This document shows positions 9,988-42,900 of a stretch of 64,000 nucleotides of DNA, piece by piece (position 1 is the first letter of the stretch; each line of letters starts with the position of its first letter). A program made the position numbers and the translations under genes. This stretch comes from Bdellovibrionales bacterium. Lineage in GTDB: Bacteria > Bdellovibrionota > Bdellovibrionia > Bdellovibrionales > UBA1609. The stretch covers positions 563 through 64,562 of the forward strand of contig JAWKNX010000018.1 in NCBI GenBank assembly GCA_041391465.1, given 5' to 3'. The notes beneath the pieces are model-generated. The model was not told the DNA's origin. It saw only the letters and a program-made list of their open reading frames with translations, and made no database searches.

Positions 9988-11238
9988 GTGAGACATCAGC
10001 GATTTTTCATCCCAGGGATTTTATTTTTATTTATATTTGCGGCCTTTGTTTTTACTTCGGGTCAGCGACCAAGCTATGCGTTTAAAATGGTGTGCGATTT
10101 TGTAGAAGAGAGATACTACCTGGCGGATGAAAACCTGACCAAGTGGCACGACCTGTGTTTAGAAGTGGGGGATGCTCTGCCATTGTTTATATCAGAAGAC
10201 GAAACTGTGCGTGCACTTCGACAGGTATTGGGCATACTGCCTGTCTCTCACTTAGATGTATACTCACCGGTTGAAGAAAAGCGGGCCTGGCAAGGCATTG
10301 GTGAGGACACCGGGCTGCGCGCCGAACTCGTGCAGGATTATTTTGTAGTTACGCAAGTGTTAAGCGAGAGCCCGAATCGAGATCAGATAAAAAAGGGCGA
10401 CATTGTTTTTAAAATCAACGGCGAGTATGTCACTCGAGCCAATCAAGTTATGTTTGAAGCGGGGGAGTGGGCGGTGCTTCGGCTGAAGTCCGTGGTAAGT
10501 AAATCCGACGGATTTGTTCAGTCGGATTTTGATGAGTTCACTGTGCAGGCGAAAAAAGCAGAAATCAACGTAGATGCTAGTAACAAAGTTTATCAGTATG
10601 CGCCTGAGGTTTGGGTGCTGCAGTTGGGGAGTTTTAAAGCCGAGTGGTTTAAAGAGCTCAATTGGAAGGAGCTGGTGGGGCAGTTTATTGATAAACCCCA
10701 GTTGGTGATAGATTTACGAGGTAATTTAGGTGGAGATTTTGCGGCACTGCTGCGGGCACTGAGCCCATTTTATTGCCAGCCCACATTGATTGGGTACATC
10801 AATGCCCCAAGGCGCGAAGTGAAAGAGCCCATGGCCTTTCCGGATGCGGTGGAGGCGAAGAAACAATTTGAAGTTTTAGAGGTGGCGCGCCAGGTGATGT
10901 TGATCACCTATGAAGGGTATGGGTGTTTTAAAGGAAAGCTTTCAGTGTTAGTGGACGAAAACACTGGGTCATCGGCCGAGATATTTGCCCAAGCCATGAA
11001 AGAAAAAGGAGTCCGTGTTTGGGGCGAGCGAACCAAAGGGGAGGTGGTCATGTCGGTGTGGTATGACATTTCTTATATTTTGGGGAAGGGTTATAGTATC
11101 TCTGTCCCGGAGGCCACTTATTCCACAGTGAGAAACAATGATCTTGAGGCCTATGGAGTGATCCCTGATCGGGAGTTGTACTACCAACTTCAATATGAAT
11201 TGCACGGCAAAGACTCTTGGATAGAGGCGCTGAGGTAG
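9988..11238 (+). CDS. S41-family peptidase with PDZ-like domain
   Basis: IDLRGNLGG, VLVDENTGSSAEIFA, GERTKG, GVIPD motifs; N-terminal hydrophobic anchor. Confidence 0.88.
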   Translation: MRHQRFFIPGILFLFIFAAFVFTSGQRPSYAFKMVCDFVEERYYLADENLTKWHDLCLEVGDALPLFISEDETVRALRQVLGILPVSHLDVYSPVEEKRAWQGIGEDTGLRAELVQDYFVVTQVLSESPNRDQIKKGDIVFKINGEYVTRANQVMFEAGEWAVLRLKSVVSKSDGFVQSDFDEFTVQAKKAEINVDASNKVYQYAPEVWVLQLGSFKAEWFKELNWKELVGQFIDKPQLVIDLRGNLGGDFAALLRALSPFYCQPTLIGYINAPRREVKEPMAFPDAVEAKKQFEVLEVARQVMLITYEGYGCFKGKLSVLVDENTGSSAEIFAQAMKEKGVRVWGERTKGEVVMSVWYDISYILGKGYSISVPEATYSTVRNNDLEAYGVIPDRELYYQLQYELHGKDSWIEALR

Positions 11239-11363: not shown

Positions 11364-11395
11364 ATTAAATAGGTCGAGGAATGAGGGGGAGTGTC

Positions 11396-12324
11396 GTGAA
11401 ATTCAAATCAAAAACTTTAATGTACGCCGTAGTTTTACTTGCTCCGATTTTGTTTTTTCAAAACTGCAGTGATGTGGAGTTCGGTCAAATCGAAAGTTCT
11501 GTTTTGGCCCCGCAGGGTGACCCTGTTGATATAGCAGGGCAAGTGCCTCTGTGATTCCTGAAGAACCCGAATGTAACCTTTGATCCCAGTTGTTACGCGC
11601 CAGAAGTGATCTATCTGCCACTTGTGGAGCAGTGGGCATCCTTGGCTTTTTTGAAGATAATGTGACAAGCCCTAAAGTTGGAGACCGTGATTACAACGAT
11701 GCGGTTTTTAATTATAAAATTGCTGAGCAGTACAACTCCTATAATCAATTGGTGCGGATTTTTATTGAGCTAGGGTGCGTGAAAAGATCTCGGGCAATAA
11801 CCACCGGTTGTTTTTATACCCGAATGGTGACCCATCGCTTTCACTTTTCAAATATTTAAGTGAGCCTGGCGGCCATACCTGGCAAAGCCAATGAAAATCA
11901 CCGGGCCCGACGGGGATATAGAAAGCATTGAGAACGTCGATCATTTTCTGATTGTACCGGCGACGAAAAACTCATAGTGGGTGAGCTTATAAAACTGTAA
12001 GTGGATTTGGTCGACTAGAGGACCTGACAAATGCGGTGGCAAAAGACCATATTGATTTTCGTGCCTACCGGCTTGATTTTGCAAAATCATGGGCAGACCC
12101 AAGGTATCGACATCTCTGAGATCAACTCTTCGGACGAGATGCTCGCCAACGATGGATACCCTCTTGGGTTTATGATCCTGGCGGATTGGCAACCGCCTGC
12201 TGAGACCCAATTGATTGATAATTTATACCCAGGGTTTGAGCTGTACCGGGACTATTTAAGCCTACCACCAGACGAACGTGTCATGACCGACGAGATCCTC
12301 TACTGGTTCAATATCACCAACTAA
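11396..12324 (+). CDS. Hypothetical lipoprotein (frameshifted)
   Basis: GTG start after GAGGGGGAG; KFKSKTLMYAVVLLAPILFFQNC lipobox-like leader; fragments 11590..11859 and 12031..12324. Confidence 0.55.
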
Positions 12325-12341: not shown

Positions 12342-12399
12342 AAAGGTGCGGACCTACTTTTGGGACGATCCGCATCCAATAAAGTAGTAGGCACCTCAT
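12342..12399. repeat. REP-like imperfect palindrome, copy A1
   Basis: First 38 nt (AAAGGTGCGGACCTACTTTTGGGACGATCCGCATCCAA) are identical to 16749-16786; ends GGCACCTCAT. Confidence 0.85.
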
Positions 12400-12413
12400 T
12401 TTTTATCGTTAAA

Positions 12414-12871
12414 TCATCCAAAATCTTTGTAATCGAAAGGGATATCCTCCCAGGCAGTGCCGTCTATTACATCACATAACTCATTCTCAAAGAGGCTTCG
12501 TAACAAATTCAGAATAGGCTTCGTAGTCCGAATCTTCAAACACCTTTCCTGGGTCACTTAAATTGGTATAGGTTTTCAATTTTTCGTCCCAACTATTTTG
12601 GGATTTGCTTTCACTGGTTTTCTTTGAATTTCAAATAATTTAAAATGGTGAAAGCATTTTTATCTTTGAAATACTACAATTAATGATTTGTTGATTCTTT
12701 AGTATTGAAAATCTAATTTTCCGTTTAATATCGGAGTTTTCAAAAGTAATCGCATGGGAGAATTTGTCGAAAAGTTTAAAAGGTTCAGGCCGACTTAATT
12801 ATGTAGCCTCGATCATTCAAATGCTGACGAATTAAATCAAAGGATTGGTTTAAATTTTCTATTTGCTTCAT
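12414..12871 (-). CDS. Unannotated ~150-codon gene, candidate orphan immunity protein (frameshifted or degraded)
   Basis: AAGGAG RBS with ATG (MKQIENLNQSFDLIRQHLNDRGY); 3' end reads ENELCDVIDGTAWEDIPFDYKDFG-stop. Confidence 0.5.
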
Positions 12872-12905
12872 CAACTCCTTTCTCATAAAACCCGCTACAC
12901 TCTAT

Positions 12906-12963
12906 AAGGCTTGGACCTACTTTTGGGGCTAACCAAATCCAAAACAGACAAATAGTACTTCAT
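12906..12963. repeat. REP-like element, degenerate copy A2
   Basis: Aligns without gaps to A3: GGACCTACTTTTGGG...ATCCAAAA.AGAC...TCAT; overlaps the stop codon of 12960..13274. Confidence 0.75.
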
Positions 12964-13274
12964 TGAGACCGCGTGTCATTTTTTAATTTATCAAAATAGT
13001 TCGAATATAGATTTTCAATCTCACAGGCATCATCATAGATATCTCTATCGAAATTATATTCACCAAAAAACCTTGAAAAACCAAAAACAGGGCTAGTTGG
13101 TTTAAATCTATTCTCTCGAATTGCTTTGATTCTCCCTACAACCACAGCCAGAGCGCGCGTATTTTGATCAGCCTTGGCAACATCGGCATGTTCCGCATCT
13201 TCAAAAGAAATATTAAATCTATCCGATATCTTTTTCGCCAGCTTCACTAACTTCGAATTTATTTCTTCAGTCAT
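12960..13274 (-). CDS. Putative cognate immunity protein
   Basis: 104-aa ORF overlapping the stop of the upstream toxin gene. Confidence 0.65.
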   Translation of the reverse strand: MTEEINSKLVKLAKKISDRFNISFEDAEHADVAKADQNTRALAVVVGRIKAIRENRFKPTSPVFGFSRFFGEYNFDRDIYDDACEIENLYSNYFDKLKNDTRSQ

Positions 13275-14870
13275 TTGTAATTTTCCTCGAACTCCACAGC
13301 CAATTTACACTAAAGTTTTCAAAAAGGTATTGAACTCCCTGCCCTGAAAGGTCGCGTCCCAATATATCATCAGTCTGTGGGCGTGCCATCCCCTTTATAG
13401 CGCTAACTTCGGTACCTTTTGGAATTTTTGCCACGCTAACGACATCTCGGGCACCCCACACTCTCGCTAAGGCGAGCTGTTCATGTAGATCATCTATGGT
13501 ACTTATACTGTTTGACTGTTCCAGGGTCGTCCAATACTTCATTGTACCCATATTTTCGGAGTCGTGAAATTTGACCAAGATTAAGTCTTCGTCAATGGCA
13601 CCTTGGATTCTTCTGTATCCAGGTTCAAAGTTTCGAACTTCTCTTTCGATATGACTAGAATAATTTATTCTTAACCCTCCGTCGGAATGCTTAATAAATC
13701 CATCAGAGCCATTTGCCAATGATGTTACAAACCTTTCGATTCCGCCTTCTAAAGTCGAGCCTCCAGGTGCTAACTTGTCTATCGCTCTAAGTCCCTTTGA
13801 CAACACTGACCCGAACCCAAGTGTTACTACACCAAACACAGCAAACCCACGCCCCCATTTATCAAGCTCTTCTCCATCAATTAACCGCTTACCGGTTATG
13901 GCTTCATAGGTATCTTTTCCGAATCCCACAAATGGGACAAACCCGAGTGTTATGTCGGCCATCTCTACTGCAATTTTTTGGTAAAATTCTGCGGCTTCAG
14001 AATCAGCACTCTCGAAACTAACTCGTCCTTCTTCTATAGCAGTTAACCCAATAGCTTTTGCTTTTCTTTGTTGTGGTGATAGAACATGACGACTTTCAAA
14101 GGCTTCTTCAATGCGAGTCATATCTGCGAGGTAATTGCCAGAGAGTGAATCCTTTATTGATTCTGAACTCGATTTACCTTGCAACACTTCCAATTGTTCC
14201 AGCTCAGCACTTGAAAGATTGGATACGGAAATACTAAAAGTACTTTCAGGAGAAACATCAACAGTGGTCTGTTGAGTAAACTCACCCAATACCTGAACTA
14301 GTTTTTCCGAAGCCTCTAATCGTTGAGTTCCAGTGGCTCGAGCGGTTTCGATTATTATTGGTTCAATATTGTAAATATGCTCATTGTAAGCCCTGGCTAA
14401 AGAGGCATCATACCCACCTTTACGAAATCTTTTATTTCTTTCCCTTCGCCAACGGTGGACTTCCTTGGGGAGACTCAATCGATCTTTATCCTCACGATTG
14501 CCGAACAAATATGTATTTGCAAGGTCGATTTGATTCGCCCTAAACATCTCGCGGTAATTTGAACTTAAACTTGAAAGGTCTGGATAAAAATAATTAAACC
14601 AGTTAGAATAAGGAGAAACATCTGGAGTTTCGGGTAGGTCAACTACTGGTGGCGGAATATCTGTATCGCTTGGAGCATCAGGCAGCAGGAGGCAGCCCAT
14701 CTGGCAAATTGCTGAAGCCAATAAACTCTGGTGGGATAAAGGGATCCACTTCCAGCAGTGGTGGCACGATGTAAAGGCTCTATCCATTACTATCATGTCT
14801 ACACAAGCATTCGCGGGGGCACTAACTACACATAAATAAGTAAATAGAAAAAATAAAAATAAACTCCTCA
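13267..14870 (-). CDS. Polymorphic toxin with pre-toxin TG (PT-TG) domain
   Basis: ADITLGFVPFVGFGKDTYEAITGKRLIDGEEL is a PT-TG signature; distinct ~130-aa C-terminal domain; in-frame signal-like LRSLFLFFLFTYLCVVSAPANA upstream of the called ATG 14796 (true start uncertain). Confidence 0.8.
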
Positions 14871-15257
14871 GTGATCGACCTCACTTTTTAAAAGTGTGTG
14901 TAGGCTGAATGCGAGTTCTTCAGTATAATTTAGGCAGTTGGCTTCGAGCGCCAAACTTTTACTTTGAAATTCTCTGCAAAGATTTTGCAGCATAAATCTT
15001 CCATCCAGTGTCCTGTAATTGGAGCGTAATGAATTTAATGTCGTATTTAAACCATTCGAAGGAAATTCCAACCCACAGAGTGTCCTCCTTGATTCAAAAA
15101 CTTTCTCTAAAGTGGGGAGAGCCTCAATAATTAATCTAGCTCCATAGATGTCATTTCTCAATTTTGCCGCCTCATATCTGATCCTTGCTCTGTGCATGCG
15201 CAAATTTAGGGAGCTATTCGATATTTTGCATATACTGGTCTTAATCCCTTTCAGCAT
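14868..15257 (-). CDS. Hypothetical helical protein in the toxin operon
   Basis: 129-aa ORF abutting the toxin gene; may be a fragment of a larger frameshifted gene. Confidence 0.45.
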   Translation of the reverse strand: MLKGIKTSICKISNSSLNLRMHRARIRYEAAKLRNDIYGARLIIEALPTLEKVFESRRTLCGLEFPSNGLNTTLNSLRSNYRTLDGRFMLQNLCREFQSKSLALEANCLNYTEELAFSLHTLLKSEVDH

Positions 15258-15269
15258 AGGCTCGCCCAG

Positions 15270-16509
15270 CCTCCAAAATAGGTTGAATCAGCAGCTCTTT
15301 ACGGCTTCTTCAAGGTTTTCGCTGATTTCAGAAGGCACTCATCGCTTTTTCATTCTCATCTTCAAGAACATTAAGAATATTTAAAAAGAGCGTCGCTTTA
15401 TATGGCCAAATTTATCATGATTTATCTCATGTGTTCGAGCTCGGAAGCCATATGGACCATCGTGCATTCTGCTGATAAATTGTTTGCGTTGATTTCACGA
15501 CATTATAGCACTCAACAACACTAAAGGATCGAGACGCGAATCTACATTTTCCAACAATTTCATCCATATTTGCAACTGCTAGAGAAAGACCCTTTGCAAT
15601 GGCTTTAATTGGGAGATGTATTTCTCGCTCATAGTGAGCTATTGCTTTAATTGTGTCGTCCGCATAGGCTGGTAGGTAAATGGCCAAAGCCAATAGTGCA
15701 TTAATAATCCACTTAAGTTTTAAACAATTTTTGACATGACTTACTCTCCCACCTAGTGACGACGGATTCCACATACTTAATTCGTCGGTGGCACTCGGCA
15801 ACCCTAGTTTCAAACTGAGATTTATTTTGCAAGTAGGCTGCTATATGGCTCTAAGAAACGCCTATCTTCTTGGGCGCCCAATAGCTCATTAGAAGTTTGA
15901 TCAATTAAGTCTTTTAAAAACTCGAGGTTGTTTGATACAGGGTTTTCGGCATCCTGGAGTAAGCCCACTATCTGTCGTTAGGGATTCTGATTTCAACTAT
16001 GATTGTGATGAGTATTGAATCAGATGACCTCTTCTTCACCAACTGTGCTTCTGTAACTCCACATCGGATATCCACAATAAGGTCCATTATGAAGTATTTC
16101 ATCACCAGTTATTTGTAATTCATGAGCTGCTACTTACTTTTATTTAGGCAAGTAGTCTATTGCTCTCAGCAAATACAGAATTTAACCTTTTTAATTTTTT
16201 TCCAGTTGATTGAATTCTCGCATTAGCTCGATCAAAAGAATCTCTTAGTGGCTTAGTGTTATTCTCTGCAGCTAGTGCTTCTGCTGAAACTATTTCCAAT
16301 TGCTGAATTGCGATTTTCATTGCATGGCGGGCTTTGCCAATTTCACTCGAACGCTCATGTGCGCATTCGCGATATCGTCGATCTTTAATTTCTCGAAGGG
16401 AGGGGCGGTCACCCCCGCGCCCCTGTGCGCACACGAAGTTTGGGGCAGCTGAAAAAATCACAACGGCTAACCATAGCTTTGCCATTGAAAATGAAATGAT
16501 CCTGTACAT
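15270..16509 (-). CDS. Exported coiled-coil-like protein(s) upstream of the toxin (frameshifted, boundaries uncertain)
   Basis: ATG 16509 MYRIISFSMAKLWLAVVIFSAAPNFVCAQ; fragments 16144..16581 and 15427..15813, the latter with a second signal-like stretch. Confidence 0.45.
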
Positions 16510-16544
16510 GAATAAACCTTTCTTTAATCTTGCCGGGGAGTGAG

Positions 16545-16561
16545 AGCAATTCGAGAACCAA
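16545..16561 (-). promoter_or_regulatory. sigma54 promoter candidate for the toxin operon
   Basis: Minus strand TTGGTTCTCGAATTGCT, GG-N10-GC. Confidence 0.55.
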
Positions 16562-16748
16562 CGGAATTTTGCCTTAACCACTTGAAAACACCTAAAGTAA
16601 ACTTATTGTATTATCCAGAATTTAAGACAATTCCAAAGTTGTGGAACTGGATCCAGATGCATAATTTACATTTACGAAATAAGTCGGGTTGCAGACATAT
16701 TTTGTTTTAGATTCATTCAGAGGTATTAAGGATGCATAAAGGTGCCAT

Positions 16749-16807
16749 AAAGGTGCGGACCTACTTTTGGGACGATCCGCATCCAAAATAGACGCCTGGC
16801 ACCTCAT
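16749..16807. repeat. REP-like element, copy A3
   Basis: 38-nt identity with A1; its left end lies in a tandem duplication CATAAAGGTGC x2 (16735-16756). Confidence 0.85.
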
Positions 16808-16966
16808 GGAATGACTGACAAAATCCGTCGCCATTTCGCGAGTTTTACAGGTCTGCCGGGACTAAAGCGGTCTGATTGAGAAACTATTTCAATTTAAGCC
16901 TGGTCATCTACTTGCACATACCTAGTTATGTTAATTTTAGGGAGTTTTAACGGGAGTAAACGGACT

Positions 16967-17874
16967 GTGCGCAAGTTAGTCATCTGTCTAATTTTTAGTA
17001 CCTTCAGCTTAAGTGCCTTTGGTGGGATCATTGGAGACAAAGATCCTCGGAGTATCATAGGACCTAATAACGATATCGAAGCTGAGGCTGGGCAAGCAAC
17101 TTTTCAAATTCGATCTACATTTGAAAACGTAGACGGTAAGGCGGGTACATCTGCCGCTATTGTGAACCGAAGAATAATGATAACTGCAAAGCATAACATC
17201 ATCGATACCAACACTGGAGAAAGAGCAAAGTCTGCGACGATAGTCCTTAACCCCGAAGCTGACTTTTTGGATCAAAAATTTATAAAAGTATTAATCGCTA
17301 AAACAGTTTGTCGTGAGGATCAGGACAAATGTTGGTTGGTTCTAGAGGAATCCCTGCCTGAGTCGGTCAGTCCATTAAATGTTTTTTTTACTAATGGCGA
17401 GACTGAAGATGAAATTGTGAAAAAATTCAAAGCCCATTTTTTTCCCAATGCGATTGGTAGCAAAATGATAGTAAACGTGAGTTTCAAAATGACACGTTCA
17501 CTGGTGGGAAGACCTTGGATCGAGCTCAAACTAATTCGCCAGCTTCTGCGGCTCGACAGGGTATCGGTGAAATCTATCAGAAATTTCGATCCTATCAGAG
17601 TTGTGATTATAGGGGAGTTGTTGATGGCGATCGGTTTGAGGGTGTTATTGCCAGTGACTGTGCTTCTCGCTATGGCGCAAGTGGTTCGGTTGAGGTGACT
17701 GAAATGGCAGGAGAAGTACTGGCTCTGGCTGTTAAGGTTTCTATGAAAGAGTATGATGTGGATATGCAACCATTCGACCTATATCGAAATGCTGGATATT
17801 CGATACCATTTGATCGAATTGACGATAAAATTGTTGCTCAGATATTATTAGAACTAATGTTCAAAGATTATTGA
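16967..17874 (+). CDS. Secreted trypsin-like serine protease (frameshifted)
   Basis: Signal peptide, IIG N-terminus, MITAKH (His motif), SDCASRYGASGS (Ser motif) in the downstream frame. Confidence 0.7.
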
Positions 17875-17962
17875 AAGTAAATGATTGTCTCGAAATGAGA
17901 CGTATCAAAAAATATCTACTAAAGTCTTAAAGTGTTTCAGAACTAGATCCGATATAAGGGAT

Positions 17963-20342
17963 ATGCATTTATCCCCAAAATATTTGATTGGCATTATTTT
18001 ATTTTTTAGTTCCATCCAATTATCTTTCGCTGGAAGTGATCATTGGGTTATGGACACTGGCTTTGCCCAGTTGTGTGAAAGTAAAAAAGGGAAGCTCTAC
18101 CAGGGGCCAAGTTGGATAGGCCTCAAACAAACAAGAGATTTTTACTGTTTTACAGATTCAGAGGTTTTTAGAAAAGACGAAAATGATCACAACAATTATG
18201 ACGATATTTCTGGTGGATTCCTGGCGGGCACTTATAAGAGGCTCGAAAAATTTGGAGCCGATAATTTAATAGCGGACTTTTCGCAATTAGAAATTAATGA
18301 AGGCAACCCATTAAATCAAATAAATGCCGGTTTGCCAGAGATTTGTACTAGTGACAGAGTTCGAAATGAAGGGATAGAAGAGCTTTGTAAGCAATGTGCA
18401 TCGGAAAATAATAATGAATCAACGGCCACCCAAGTTTGTGTTGCTCAAAGGAAAGGGCCGATCAATAACTCTGATAGCGAAGGCGCAGATCCAACAACAG
18501 CAGAGTTAATTGCACAGTGGTGCTCGGGGCTTGATGGCACTACTAGATTGGCATGTGTCCAATGTGTCCAGAATGGCGCGAATGATATTTCAAATTGTGT
18601 ACAGGAAAGAGTTAGCGGCGGGTCGCCATCTAGTGAAACAGTTGGTGGTAGTAACAACACACAAAACTCACCGTATTTCACAGGTGATTATGGCGGCACA
18701 ATCGACAAAATCTTTGCTCAGTCTTGTCAAGCAATAGAAGGGCAGTCGAGTCTTGCGAGACAGCCGACCGGAACCGATGCTGCAGGCAATGTTTTAGATT
18801 ATCAAGTGGGATCATCAGACTGCGAGAGAAAGCTCGCATCATTTAAACAAGAATGCCGTGGTAATGACTTTGAATGTGCCCACCGTTGGGCAGAGGAAAT
18901 TTGTTATAACGGCAGTCAAAACTGTATTCAGGCTGTGTATCAAGAGGCGGGATTTCGAACGTCCCAAGAGATCTGGGCGTGGTTTAGAAGCCAAGGTGTG
19001 GATCAATACACTTGGGAGTTAGTGAACGCTTCGATGAATGGCGATCGTGAAATCGCCGAACTCATTAATTGTGAAACTAAAAACGAAGAAGCGGTTCGCT
19101 GTTGTGGCGACCCCATGTCGTGCGCAGTGGGCAACAAACAAGTGGGGCAGGGGTTAAACACCGTTGTCACCTTAGGCACTCCTGGGCACTCAGGGGCCCG
19201 GTTTGGGCATGAGCATTGGTGAGTCATGCCGACTGCTAAAAGGCATCTCCTTGGGCGGAATGGCCGTCAACCAGGGGCTCTCAGCCATGTGTACTAACAA
19301 AGTGGGGCAGTGTAAGAATTTATGTGACGACTCTGAACAGCGATTGAAGACCGCCCAACAAGTGGTTAATCAGCAGTGTGGGCGGTACACAACGCTGGAG
19401 AGATCTGGCATTGGATCGCGCATTTGCTCTCAAGACCGCCAGTTTGGAGAGTACGCACGGCAAGTCCACTCCAAATCCGCACAGTGCCAAAACCAGGCGG
19501 ATCGGGCCCACGCGATGCAAGTGAACTCACTGGCGCAAGGGGCGTTCAGTGCGTTTGCGCAAAAGTGTGAAGATGAAATTAAAACAGCCGAGACGGGTTT
19601 TGAAGGTCTAGACCCAGTGGGGAATACGGCTTTTGATGGCGATTGCCGAACGGCAGCCAACGCCAACAACCCCATTTGTGTACGCTGTAATGCTGATCCA
19701 TCCGCTCCAGGTTGTGAAGGCCTGTTGGTGAATCCTAATATGAATCCCAACGGTATCGCCAGCGGGTTCGGCGAACCTCTCGGTTCGCCAGGGTTCAGCG
19801 CCATTGATACCACATTGCCTGAATTAGATAATCCTTTTGAAAACCCAGAGTACGCTGACCCAATGGCCATCGAAGCCGCGCAAAGAAACGACCCCACTAT
19901 GGGTGCGGGCAACGGCGGCGGAGCCGGCGGTATGGGCGGCCCTGGCATGGATGGAGGATTAGATCCTCTCCCCAAACCTGGAAACCCCAATGGTCAATTG
20001 CAAACAGATATTCTCACTGGTGAGCGCGGTGGTAGTTACAGTGCGAGCAGCATGGGATTTAATGGCGGCGGCGGATTCAGTTACGGGCGAGAGCCTGCGT
20101 CGCTGGCGAAGAAAAATTTAATCGAAGCCCACAAGAAAAGCGGATTTGATTTAAAGAAATACCTGCCTGGCAAACAAGGCACGGCCAAACTTCCTGGCAT
20201 GGCACGAATGCCGGCGAACATTGGTAAAACGACTGATGATATTTTTAAAATGGTATCGCGACGATATCGATTGCGCTGTATGCAAGGGCAATTTTATGGC
20301 TGCCCAGGCGGCGGTCAACCACCGGCAACTCGTGGCCCCTAG
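17963..20342 (+). CDS. Large secreted Cys-rich protein with Gly/Pro-rich C-terminal region (one frameshift near 19190)
   Basis: Signal peptide ending LSFA; ORFs 17885..19222 and 19203..20342 overlap and are compositionally continuous. Confidence 0.7.
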
Positions 20343-32517: not shown

Positions 32518-32598
32518 AAGGTACGGACACACTTGTGCGGAGCAGCCGCTAAGGCGATTTTGCACTCGCTCCGCACAAGTGTGTCCGTACCTTTTAAA
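32513..32598. repeat. REPIN-like long palindrome B1
   Basis: 31-bp perfect inverted arms TTTAAAAGGTACGGACACACTTGTGCGGAGC with a 24-nt spacer. Confidence 0.92.
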
Positions 32599-41925: not shown

Positions 41926-42828
41926 ATGGCAAAATCCAAATCAGAAGCTGAAAAGACCAACGAAATCGTTATTGATCGAGACAATGGTTTGGTTTTTCAC
42001 AGCGAAGAAGAGCTCTATAAACACTTTGAAAAAGACATCGAAGTGCTAGAGGAGAACTTTTTCAAGTGGCGAAAAGACAGTGATATTTCTGAGAAGGATT
42101 TTGAAAAGTTCGAGCATCGTCTTACGGAAACATTAGAGGACCCGGACGAAATCTGGCGGGACAATGAAACATTAATTAACGATGTCCCAGTTTGCATCTA
42201 TTTAAAAGTCTTCGAAAAGGAAGCCGCTAAAAAGAAAAGGCTGAAAAAAGTAAAGTCGGAAGAGGGCGAAGAGTCCCATCCAGATGAAGAGGATTTGGAA
42301 TACTATGTGGCGGTTACGTATCTGACGGATGATATTCCGAGTTTTATCTACCTTCACTTTCCAAGTACGGACCTGGACTTGGTGGAGAGATTTAGGGATG
42401 GAGATTTGGTGTTCTCGCGCGCTATGGAGCAAGTGCCTCCAGGGGCAATTATGGGAGATGCGTTGACCGAAGGGGACGATTTGGCCCTCGGGTTGTATGA
42501 ATCCATGATGGTGGTGCGGAGCTCATCAGATATCACAGAGAAAGATTTTGCTGAGTACGCTGAACTCCGAGAGCGGGCTGTTGAAGAGGCTGATGAAATT
42601 TGGCGTCGAGATGATGGCATGGGTAACATTTTGGTGACCTTTGTTAGAGATTTTGGCGATGAATATGAAGCAGACCTTTGGTATCTCGTTGTAACGGTGG
42701 AGGATTCTCCATCAAATTCGCACTCACTCTTATTTTCGTTTCCGACGCAAGATAAATCCCTATTGGATCGATATCGGATTGGTGAAAACCTGCAGGCCGA
42801 AGAGGTGGTGCAGGAGTCATCCCACTAG
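41926..42828 (+). CDS. Acidic protein with an internal duplication (possible PBECR2-like fold)
   Basis: Two homologous halves: TLEDPDEIW...FPSTDLDLVERFR.G and AVEEADEIW...FPTQDKSLLDRYR.G. Confidence 0.7.
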   Translation: MAKSKSEAEKTNEIVIDRDNGLVFHSEEELYKHFEKDIEVLEENFFKWRKDSDISEKDFEKFEHRLTETLEDPDEIWRDNETLINDVPVCIYLKVFEKEAAKKKRLKKVKSEEGEESHPDEEDLEYYVAVTYLTDDIPSFIYLHFPSTDLDLVERFRDGDLVFSRAMEQVPPGAIMGDALTEGDDLALGLYESMMVVRSSSDITEKDFAEYAELRERAVEEADEIWRRDDGMGNILVTFVRDFGDEYEADLWYLVVTVEDSPSNSHSLLFSFPTQDKSLLDRYRIGENLQAEEVVQESSH

Positions 42829-42900
42829 GTACGGACACACTTGTGCGGAGCACATGCTAAGACTATTTAGCATGTGCTCCGCACAAGTGTGTCCGTACCT
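42827..42900. repeat. REPIN-like long palindrome B2
   Basis: 34-bp perfect stem AGGTACGGACACACTTGTGCGGAGCACATGCTAA with a 6-nt loop; 25-nt arm identical to B1. Confidence 0.93.

Follow-up and report, generated by a model that had tools for sequence, protein, structure and literature searches.

Hairpin elements built from Y1 transposase ends surround a toxin-immunity island in a Bdellovibrionales genome and are likely occasional points of gene entry

A 64,000-nucleotide stretch of a Bdellovibrionales bacterium (assembly GCA_041391465.1, contig JAWKNX010000018.1, forward-strand positions 563 to 64,562; here 'the window', with coordinates counted from its first letter) carries at 12342 to 16807 a block of minus-strand genes that encodes a polymorphic toxin and its likely immunity protein, together with three direct copies – A1, A2 and A3 – of a short hairpin element. 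The locus raises the question of how such a block entered the chromosome, and whether the hairpins had a part in it. A previous sequence-only reading proposed that repetitive extragenic palindromic (REP)-like hairpins stack toxin-immunity cassettes, possibly served in trans by a transposase. Here, we compare the genome under study (G000; 2.7 Mb, 58% complete) with a congener (G001) and with other records. The hairpins belong to a family whose arms are the ends of transposase genes, they typically follow stop codons, they cluster, with variants private to neighbours, and they are enriched at junctions that differ between the two genomes. We consider it likely, at a probability of about 55%, that they act as occasional single-strand cut-and-join points that let the toxin-immunity block and other accessory genes enter the chromosome.

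The three copies lie in direct orientation from 12343, 12906 and 16750. A1 (12342..12399, plus strand) and A3 (16749..16807, plus strand) are hairpin doublets composed of an arm of type a, a private loop and an inverted second arm, which is of type c in A1 and type b in A3. They have 38 identical nt in common, from 12342 and 16749, and both terminate in GGCACCTCAT; the decayed doublet A2 (12906..12963, plus strand) aligns with A3 without gaps. All this is as first described, and the match of A2 to A3 extends to 43 of 59 positions. Both A1 and A3 fold as hairpins as DNA (z scores of -2.9/-3.0 and -2.5/-2.1, respectively), and A2 folds no better than shuffled sequences (-0.7/-0.5). The 38-mer and its 14-nt loop occur only these two times in the 2.7 Mb genome, and because the 38-mer is absent elsewhere the pair points to local duplication. 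The outer flank ATGAG is found at one of 37 strict b/c arms in the genome, which is A3 itself; A1 likewise has ATGAG and A2 has ATGAA. Since A1 and A3 are the youngest pair and stand around the whole block, with A2 divergent, the pattern is nested rather than stacked, and one event involving the whole block fits better than serial stacking.

The family to which these copies belong is modular. Its arms, labelled a, b, c, d and p, are about 24 nt long and start with GTGC or GTAC (arm b with GGTGCCAG and arm a with GGTGCGGA); an element has one or more arms, and in doublets two arms are joined head to head to give a long imperfect hairpin. Strict patterns find 50 loci in the genome under study and 75 in the congener, of which 2.77 of 3.54 Mb was covered, with none in reversed-sequence genomes used as controls; looser patterns find 67 loci in the former genome and four in its control. 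Nine of the order's 301 genomes matched the b-arm pattern, four of them at many places (20, 8, 41 and 30 copies), and a GTDB scan gave 48 loci, all titled Bdellovibrionota or unassigned metagenome-assembled genomes. Metagenomes searched with arm a yielded 19 loci, nearly all of which are that same congener DNA, a viral scan gave no loci, and a search of the repeats against Rfam gave no family. The window contains two further doublets of a related arm type starting GGTACGGACACAC, at 32520-32591, in a gap that also has an element in the congener, and at 42828-42899, between two conserved convergent genes. At three loci in the genome (C3:128403-128566, C11:57100-57189 and C32:23099-23211) 22-nt a-arm units are repeated in tandem within doublets, resembling the amplification of bacterial interspersed mosaic elements (BIMEs). 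A CRISPR-like array was considered and rejected, the spacers being gene-sized.

The proposal of an HUH transposase acting in trans is supported, and the suggested search for such a gene flanked by the same repeat was successful. The genome has three Y1_Tnp matches over the cut-off (PF01797), of which the intact one (G000:C2:183560-184335) stands between inverted b arms identical at 24 of 24 nt, the second of them encoding its C-terminus, and arm b of A3 is the terminal inverted repeat (TIR) of this gene. A frameshifted transposase on contig C19 has a p variant on its flanks, and the third copy has no arms. The congener has two transposases, one (on its contig C8) with inverted a arms identical at 24 of 24 nt and the other with p palindromes. 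All five proteins checked have the HUH motif (as HFH or HYH) and YxxxNP; they are 222-244 aa long with a C-terminal extension, their sole Pfam match is Y1_Tnp, and scores of 62.5 and 58.7 bits against NCBIfam NF047646 (REP_Tyr_transpos) fall below the cut-off of 80 for REP-associated tyrosine transposases (RAYTs). Among 109 genomes of the family, 50 contain relatives of the transposase, and the two genomes richest in b arms have close transposases (53% and 52%). In other records, the transposase genes at L205:5001-6477 and L211:5001-7597 have additional cargo, either within their arms or adjoining them, and the former adjoins a candidate defence gene, PDC-S59.

These enzymes probably correspond to TnpA-Y1 subclass 2.1, as it is described in the available text of 10.1101/279083, although the C-terminal helix-turn-helix of that subclass has no counterpart among Pfam matches here. 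TIRtron/TIRYT elements, in the parts of PMC3733652 available, consist of a Y1 transposase gene set between long inverted repeats, which can reach into the end of the gene, with TIRs also dispersed as singles, dimers and clusters, and with several transposases per genome, each having its own arms. The present family is alike in its Y1 gene, long inverted ends, dispersed singles, dimers and clusters, arm for each transposase, and YxxxNP motif. It is unlike TIRYT in combining arms from different transposases into hybrid doublets, and lacks the GGGGWSAS motif of most, not all, described TIRs (arm b agrees at six of eight positions). Accessory-gene bracketing and this lineage are unmentioned in the available text of PMC3733652 and 10.1101/279083, where 'Bdellovibrio' has zero occurrences. 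The REP/BIME/REPIN-RAYT systems, so far as the accessible portions of PMC3333891, PMC8266576, PMC5581495 and 10.1101/2021.07.10.451892 portray them, are similar in having non-autonomous doublets after genes that are locally amplified and HUH-linked; however, the RAYT foot is GTAG whereas here it is GTGC or GTAC, REP copies number hundreds rather than tens, and RAYTs are described as fixed whereas in the two congeners compared here the transposase occupies different loci. The E. coli TnpA-REP cleaves and transfers strands in vitro, and sequestration of flanking genes by BIMEs has been proposed, according to the sections of PMC3333891 available. The sequence-only reading knew of no description of such a system for PT-TG toxins in this lineage. 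In the open-access literature we found these repeats undescribed in Bdellovibrionota and no REP/TIR-bounded toxin modules, although bioRxiv supplements (e.g. to 10.1101/279083) may list such flanks. The TIR/TIRYT kind of element is already in print, as is gene sequestration by REP units in the form of a proposal; what is new is a family of mixed-arm, GTGC-footed elements in Bdellovibrionales, together with the statistics on junctions and a toxin as cargo.

The elements have a marked preference for positions directly after genes. For 26 of the 50 loci a stop codon is no more than 35 nt away, and 27 of 37 b/c arms follow directly on a stop triplet, against a background of 8%; in other records the same is true of 39 of 80 b/c arms (background 8-10%), and in the congener the bias (4/12) is not significant. 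They also cluster, in that 33 of the 50 loci are within 5 kb of another, where 7.6 would be expected, and direct neighbours have their inner flanks in common (0.83 versus 0.49; 61 pairs, those within arrays being non-independent). Four loci from other records (L193, L199, L205 and L219) have direct pairs with private variants around single small genes. Much of this would equally be seen if the hairpins were passive REP-like passengers that hop locally after stop codons and are tolerated in variable regions, the toxin block having arrived by an unrelated transfer and been decorated afterwards. We regard this as a strong rival, if a less probable one, and one that the many single copies between ordinary genes among the 43 loci from other records also favour. 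Local amplification alone, as in the two-step model in the available part of PMC3333891, could account for the shared variants.

Some of what the elements show at sites where gene content differs is not predicted by passive passengers. In the congener the window locus is syntenic, but other genes occupy the space between the peptidase S41 gene (9988..11238, plus strand), the left conserved anchor, and the right flank, an interval that genome G149 lacks altogether; the congener has a decayed p-type copy near the A3 position. Across the genome, only three of 45 element-bearing intervals have the same genes adjacent in the congener, versus 1120 of 2355 intervals without elements; a looser set, restricted to neighbourhoods in which 40% or more of the genes have a match, gives 6/31 versus 575/994 (p 2e-5), and counting clusters once gives 4/16 versus 58% (p 0.008). 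The enrichment survives stratification by gene orientation (odds ratio 6.5, p 3e-4, on the side of the genome under study) and by gap length. Of the gaps between 1260 pairs of syntenic anchors, 17 of 959 unchanged ones contain an element, as do 12 of 95 indels and 20 of 206 gaps variable in both genomes; at the edge, an element is present in seven of 88 filled indel alleles (excluding seven rearranged indels) compared with 14 of 1918 unchanged gaps, a 12-fold excess that passive spread does not predict. The claim that the element would be enriched at variable junctions rather than evenly scattered thus holds on this side of the comparison, and because the hairpins are enriched where genes differ from the congener they are likely occasional entry or exit points for new genes.

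Individual breakpoints, several of them in the congener, bear out the further expectation of presence/absence differences at the repeats. At G000:C5:88690-90834, after a gene we take to be tpiA, two direct doublets (48/52 identical) surround about 1.5 kb of extra DNA, where the congener has a single remnant arm – a two-versus-one pattern that passive spread fails to predict. The congener has a 4 kb insert at G001:C2:298853-302860, after what is presumably smpB, with elements at either end and another within it, where the genome under study has abutting stop codons and no element. Inserts at G001:C6:275109-282784 and G001:C6:497908-498448 are bounded at both ends, and the other genome has neither insert nor element; the C2 transposase is itself a further insert bounded at both ends. 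Elements at both edges of clean inserts are likewise not expected of passengers. The two genomes also share a hypervariable locus (G000:C6:29675-31352 and G001:C4:296794-307339) that differs in its genes and has three elements in either genome.

A substantial set of observations weighs against a role in gene entry. Eighty-three of the 95 indels have no element, the 17 elements in unchanged gaps lie where no gene has changed, and many single copies follow the stop codons of ordinary genes. On the congener side the depletion at conserved junctions is not significant (13/52 versus 353/1000, p 0.14), being present for type a (3/24, p 0.03) and absent for type p (9/23, p 0.83), and the odds ratio in covered neighbourhoods is 1.06; gene calls in the congener are cruder than in the genome under study, which is itself 58% complete. 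The absence of elements at most indels and the lack of enrichment for p-type copies or covered congener neighbourhoods are what passive passengers would give. The congener is moreover the sole comparator, at about 70% DNA identity and with 78% of its genome covered. Element remnants at the other genome's site occur in 5/38 gaps against a background of 58/707; with the rate so near background, an empty site that keeps one repeat is not general, and a strict count finds one empty allele in 88. In the genome under study near pairs are inverted as often as direct (14 versus 13), two of the cases bounded at both ends have differing arm types and one adjoins a tRNA-like sequence, and genes flanking elements are not AT-richer (0.433 versus 0.425). 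At the island itself the variable region already begins 1.1 kb before A1 is reached. No b-arm match exists in G163 (59%) and G175 (53%), although both have close transposases, and no a- or c-arm transposase was found in the genome under study. Finally, the empty sites anticipated in reads did not appear: three wastewater runs contain island and flank pieces at >99% identity and gave no empty-site or circle joint, their depth of 2-5 and short contigs making this uninformative.

If the hairpins do act as cut-and-join points, the transposase or a paralogue would nick a single-stranded arm at its foot and would spread hairpins locally after stop codons; occasionally it would join two arms, with gain or loss of the intervening DNA, and pairs of direct copies like A1 and A3 would be left behind. 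A1 and A3 would then mark the last event involving the whole block, A2 being an older copy. Short tandem duplications at the arm foot, found at 10 of 168 arms compared with 9 of 1693 GGTGC sites (a control set in which the element sites are themselves counted), may be an indirect footprint of such nicking; one of the ten is the 11-nt micro-duplication at the foot of A3 (16735..16756, plus strand), which comprises flank and the start of arm a. Host homologous recombination or slippage offers another route, in which the transposase does no more than spread hairpins, and the stretch between two 38-58-nt repeats is acquired or deleted through RecA-type events. The direct orientation of A1 and A3 and their 38 identical nt suit this, as does a leader common to several units of a congener array (below), which duplication and recombination would give. 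We nevertheless consider it improbable, as a 38-nt repeat is short for RecA, several bounded inserts have different arm types or inverted arms, and the micro-duplications end at the arm foot, which suggests a site-specific nick.

The notion of a dedicated system for stacking toxin-immunity cassettes fares worse. In its favour, copies separate the toxin-immunity pair from the orphan gene downstream, and the congener's only two Rhs-core matches lie in an element-punctuated block beside its a-type transposase, one of the tips being Tox-MPTase3. But most element-flanked genes are not toxins (one toxin family among 39 element-associated open reading frames (ORFs) scanned from G001-type loci), PT-TG genes number one in the genome under study and none in three other element-rich genomes, and the youngest pair is A1 and A3 rather than adjacent copies. 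Together with the nested pattern, the many single copies and the element-free indels, this largely refutes the toxin-specific form. The Rhs block (L024:1-4950, at the start of G001:C8) comprises Rhs tips and immunity-like genes with a-type doublets between them, and two short metagenome contigs (L048 and L038) have other Rhs tips with the same elements. The most cassette-like array seen is L022:8040-13040, at the end of G001:C12, in which most of the six co-oriented doublets come directly after orphan genes, usually for secreted products; a further leader of about 110 nt recurs in three or four units, and one copy is preceded by an 84-nt perfect tandem duplication. No such longer unit of element plus leader was seen for A1-A3.

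Integron and CALIN arrays also have imperfect hairpins directly after genes, with attC sites in the order RYYYAAC...GTTRRRY. The hairpins here, and the co-oriented array of orphan genes in L022, are integron-like in this respect, and the outer flanks of b/c arms lean towards GTTRR-GT (G at -5 in 22/37 and T at -4 in 26/37), as might be expected of a cryptic integron with atypical att sites. Unlike in integrons, however, the GTT motif faces outwards from the hairpin, opposite to its direction in attC, the attC order is absent at A1-A3, units in the window are multi-gene and nested, and no integron integrase passes the TIGR02249 cut-off in any of four genomes (the one under study and three that are 97-99% complete). 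The non-integron assignment made from the sequence therefore stands, an attC system is rejected, and we judge this alternative, like the cassette stacking with which we group it, very improbable. As the cargo is unspecialised, taking in secreted orphans and small enzymes as well as Rhs tips and this toxin, opportunistic, TIRtron-like gene capture describes the system better than a toxin-specific cassette machine. More tentatively, TIRYT-type transposases and mixed-arm hairpins might form an integron-analogous system of single-strand capture, with targets after stop codons and with A1 and A3 as scars of cargo circles that delivered the antibacterial NADase toxin-immunity pair to a predatory bacterium; targeting just after stop codons would let cargo enter with host genes unbroken.

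The cargo at this locus is a plausible toxin-immunity pair, as previously read. The toxin ORF (13267..14871, minus strand) has a hydrophobic N-terminal stretch, a PT-TG domain (PF14449, E 6.5e-12) and a C-terminal toxin domain; its start is uncertain, the hydrophobic stretch being upstream of the first ATG at 14796. It overlaps the downstream immunity ORF (12960..13274, minus strand; 104 aa), the TGA of which lies inside A2, as had been noted. The pre-toxin domain, a C-terminal domain common to several delivery types and the downstream immunity gene are traits of polymorphic toxins. The last 135 aa of the toxin have 251 relatives, and among 25 scanned these are found with PT-TG (four), LXG (two), PAAR (two), haemagglutinin (two), RHS (one) and PT-HINT (one); this family has no Pfam model. 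Two other PT-TG proteins (P0002 and P0003) have the same C-terminal domain, and P0002 has a signal-peptide-like start and the length of the database form of the window protein.

A model of the toxin domain (predicted local distance difference test (pLDDT) 94) matches the structures of Tne2 (Z 11.1, root-mean-square deviation 2.4, 105 aligned residues), Tse6 and Rhs1-CT, with another match in this set at Z 10.4, deviation 3.0 and 116 aligned residues, all at 8-17% identity (PDB 6b12, 4zv4 and 6xtd); searches of PDB by sequence and profile gave no match. We take Tne2, Tse6 and the Serratia Rhs1-CT to be NAD(P)+ glycohydrolases, and the C-terminal domain is accordingly modelled with a Tne2/Tse6-like NAD(P)+ glycohydrolase fold, from which NADase activity is predicted. 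The 104-aa protein is likely the cognate immunity protein: its predicted complex with the toxin domain scores 0.82 against 0.01 for the best control, runs agree on at least 96% of contacts with a partner pLDDT of at least 86, and the mark for binding used here is reached by 116 of 157 solved pairs and two of 215 mismatched ones, such a prediction being support rather than proof. The C-terminal fold and adjacent small immunity gene are as in the Tne2, Tse6 and Rhs1-CT toxins, unlike which the domain is here placed behind PT-TG with a signal-like N-terminus. Homologue searches returned only the query itself for the whole toxin and likewise for the immunity protein, in the latter case among two candidates. 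The absence of the toxin domain from the 320 other genomes of the order searched suggests recent acquisition. The available text of PMC13483458, on PT-TG toxins, has no mention of Bdellovibrio.

The remaining genes of the island fit the order proposed for it, A3-[exported proteins, toxin, immunity]-A2-[orphan]-A1, except that the orphan is not an intact ORF. It reads across three frames (12410..12886, minus strand) between A2 and A1, and is possibly, from its position, an orphan immunity gene; one 51-aa piece has no Pfam or PADLOC match. Three small orphan ORFs (14868-15257, 15427-15813 and 16144-16581, minus strand) precede the toxin gene, the latter two with hydrophobic, signal-peptide-like stretches, and none has a match elsewhere in the genome or in the covered portion of the congener. 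The block is AT-rich as stated, but slightly so (40.0% GC versus 42.2 +/- 1.8% in 4.5-kb windows, the 12th percentile), and we reject this mild bias as a sign of foreign origin. Twelve ORFs in and around the island gave no integrase or transposase family, confirming the earlier impression; PADLOC gave no match for six island proteins, promoter and terminator scans were at chance level, and no tRNA was found in the window.

A1 starts 18 nt past the stop of the left-flank ORF, a broken DUF4114/DUF4842-like gene (11381..12324, plus strand) that is outside A1 and within the variable region, and whose homologue is on a different contig in the congener. Directly right of the island, 17885-20342 encodes a large Cys-/Gly-rich secreted protein with paralogues elsewhere in the congener and no family match. 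The genes at 11381-12324, 16928-17874 and 17885-20342 are frameshifted or split, and are intact in the congener (315 aa, 852 aa); because one sequencing run has an extra base at 17484, some at least of these breaks are likely assembly errors, and the broken frames of the orphan between A2 and A1 may have the same cause.

The toxin domain represents a widespread family lacking a Pfam model; an NADase fold is predicted for it, as is its partnership with an immunity protein. As a whole the locus offers a compact test of whether the enzyme moves cargo, bringing together the C2 transposase, exact 24-nt arms, a candidate nick position, a stop-triplet bias, a direct private pair and a selectable cargo. 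The benefit of RAYT/TIRYT transposases to their hosts is stated as an open question in the available text of 10.1101/2021.07.10.451892, and TnpA class 2 is present in about a quarter of species according to that of 10.1101/279083. If the enzyme does move cargo, TnpA class 2 would be a route of accessory-gene gain.

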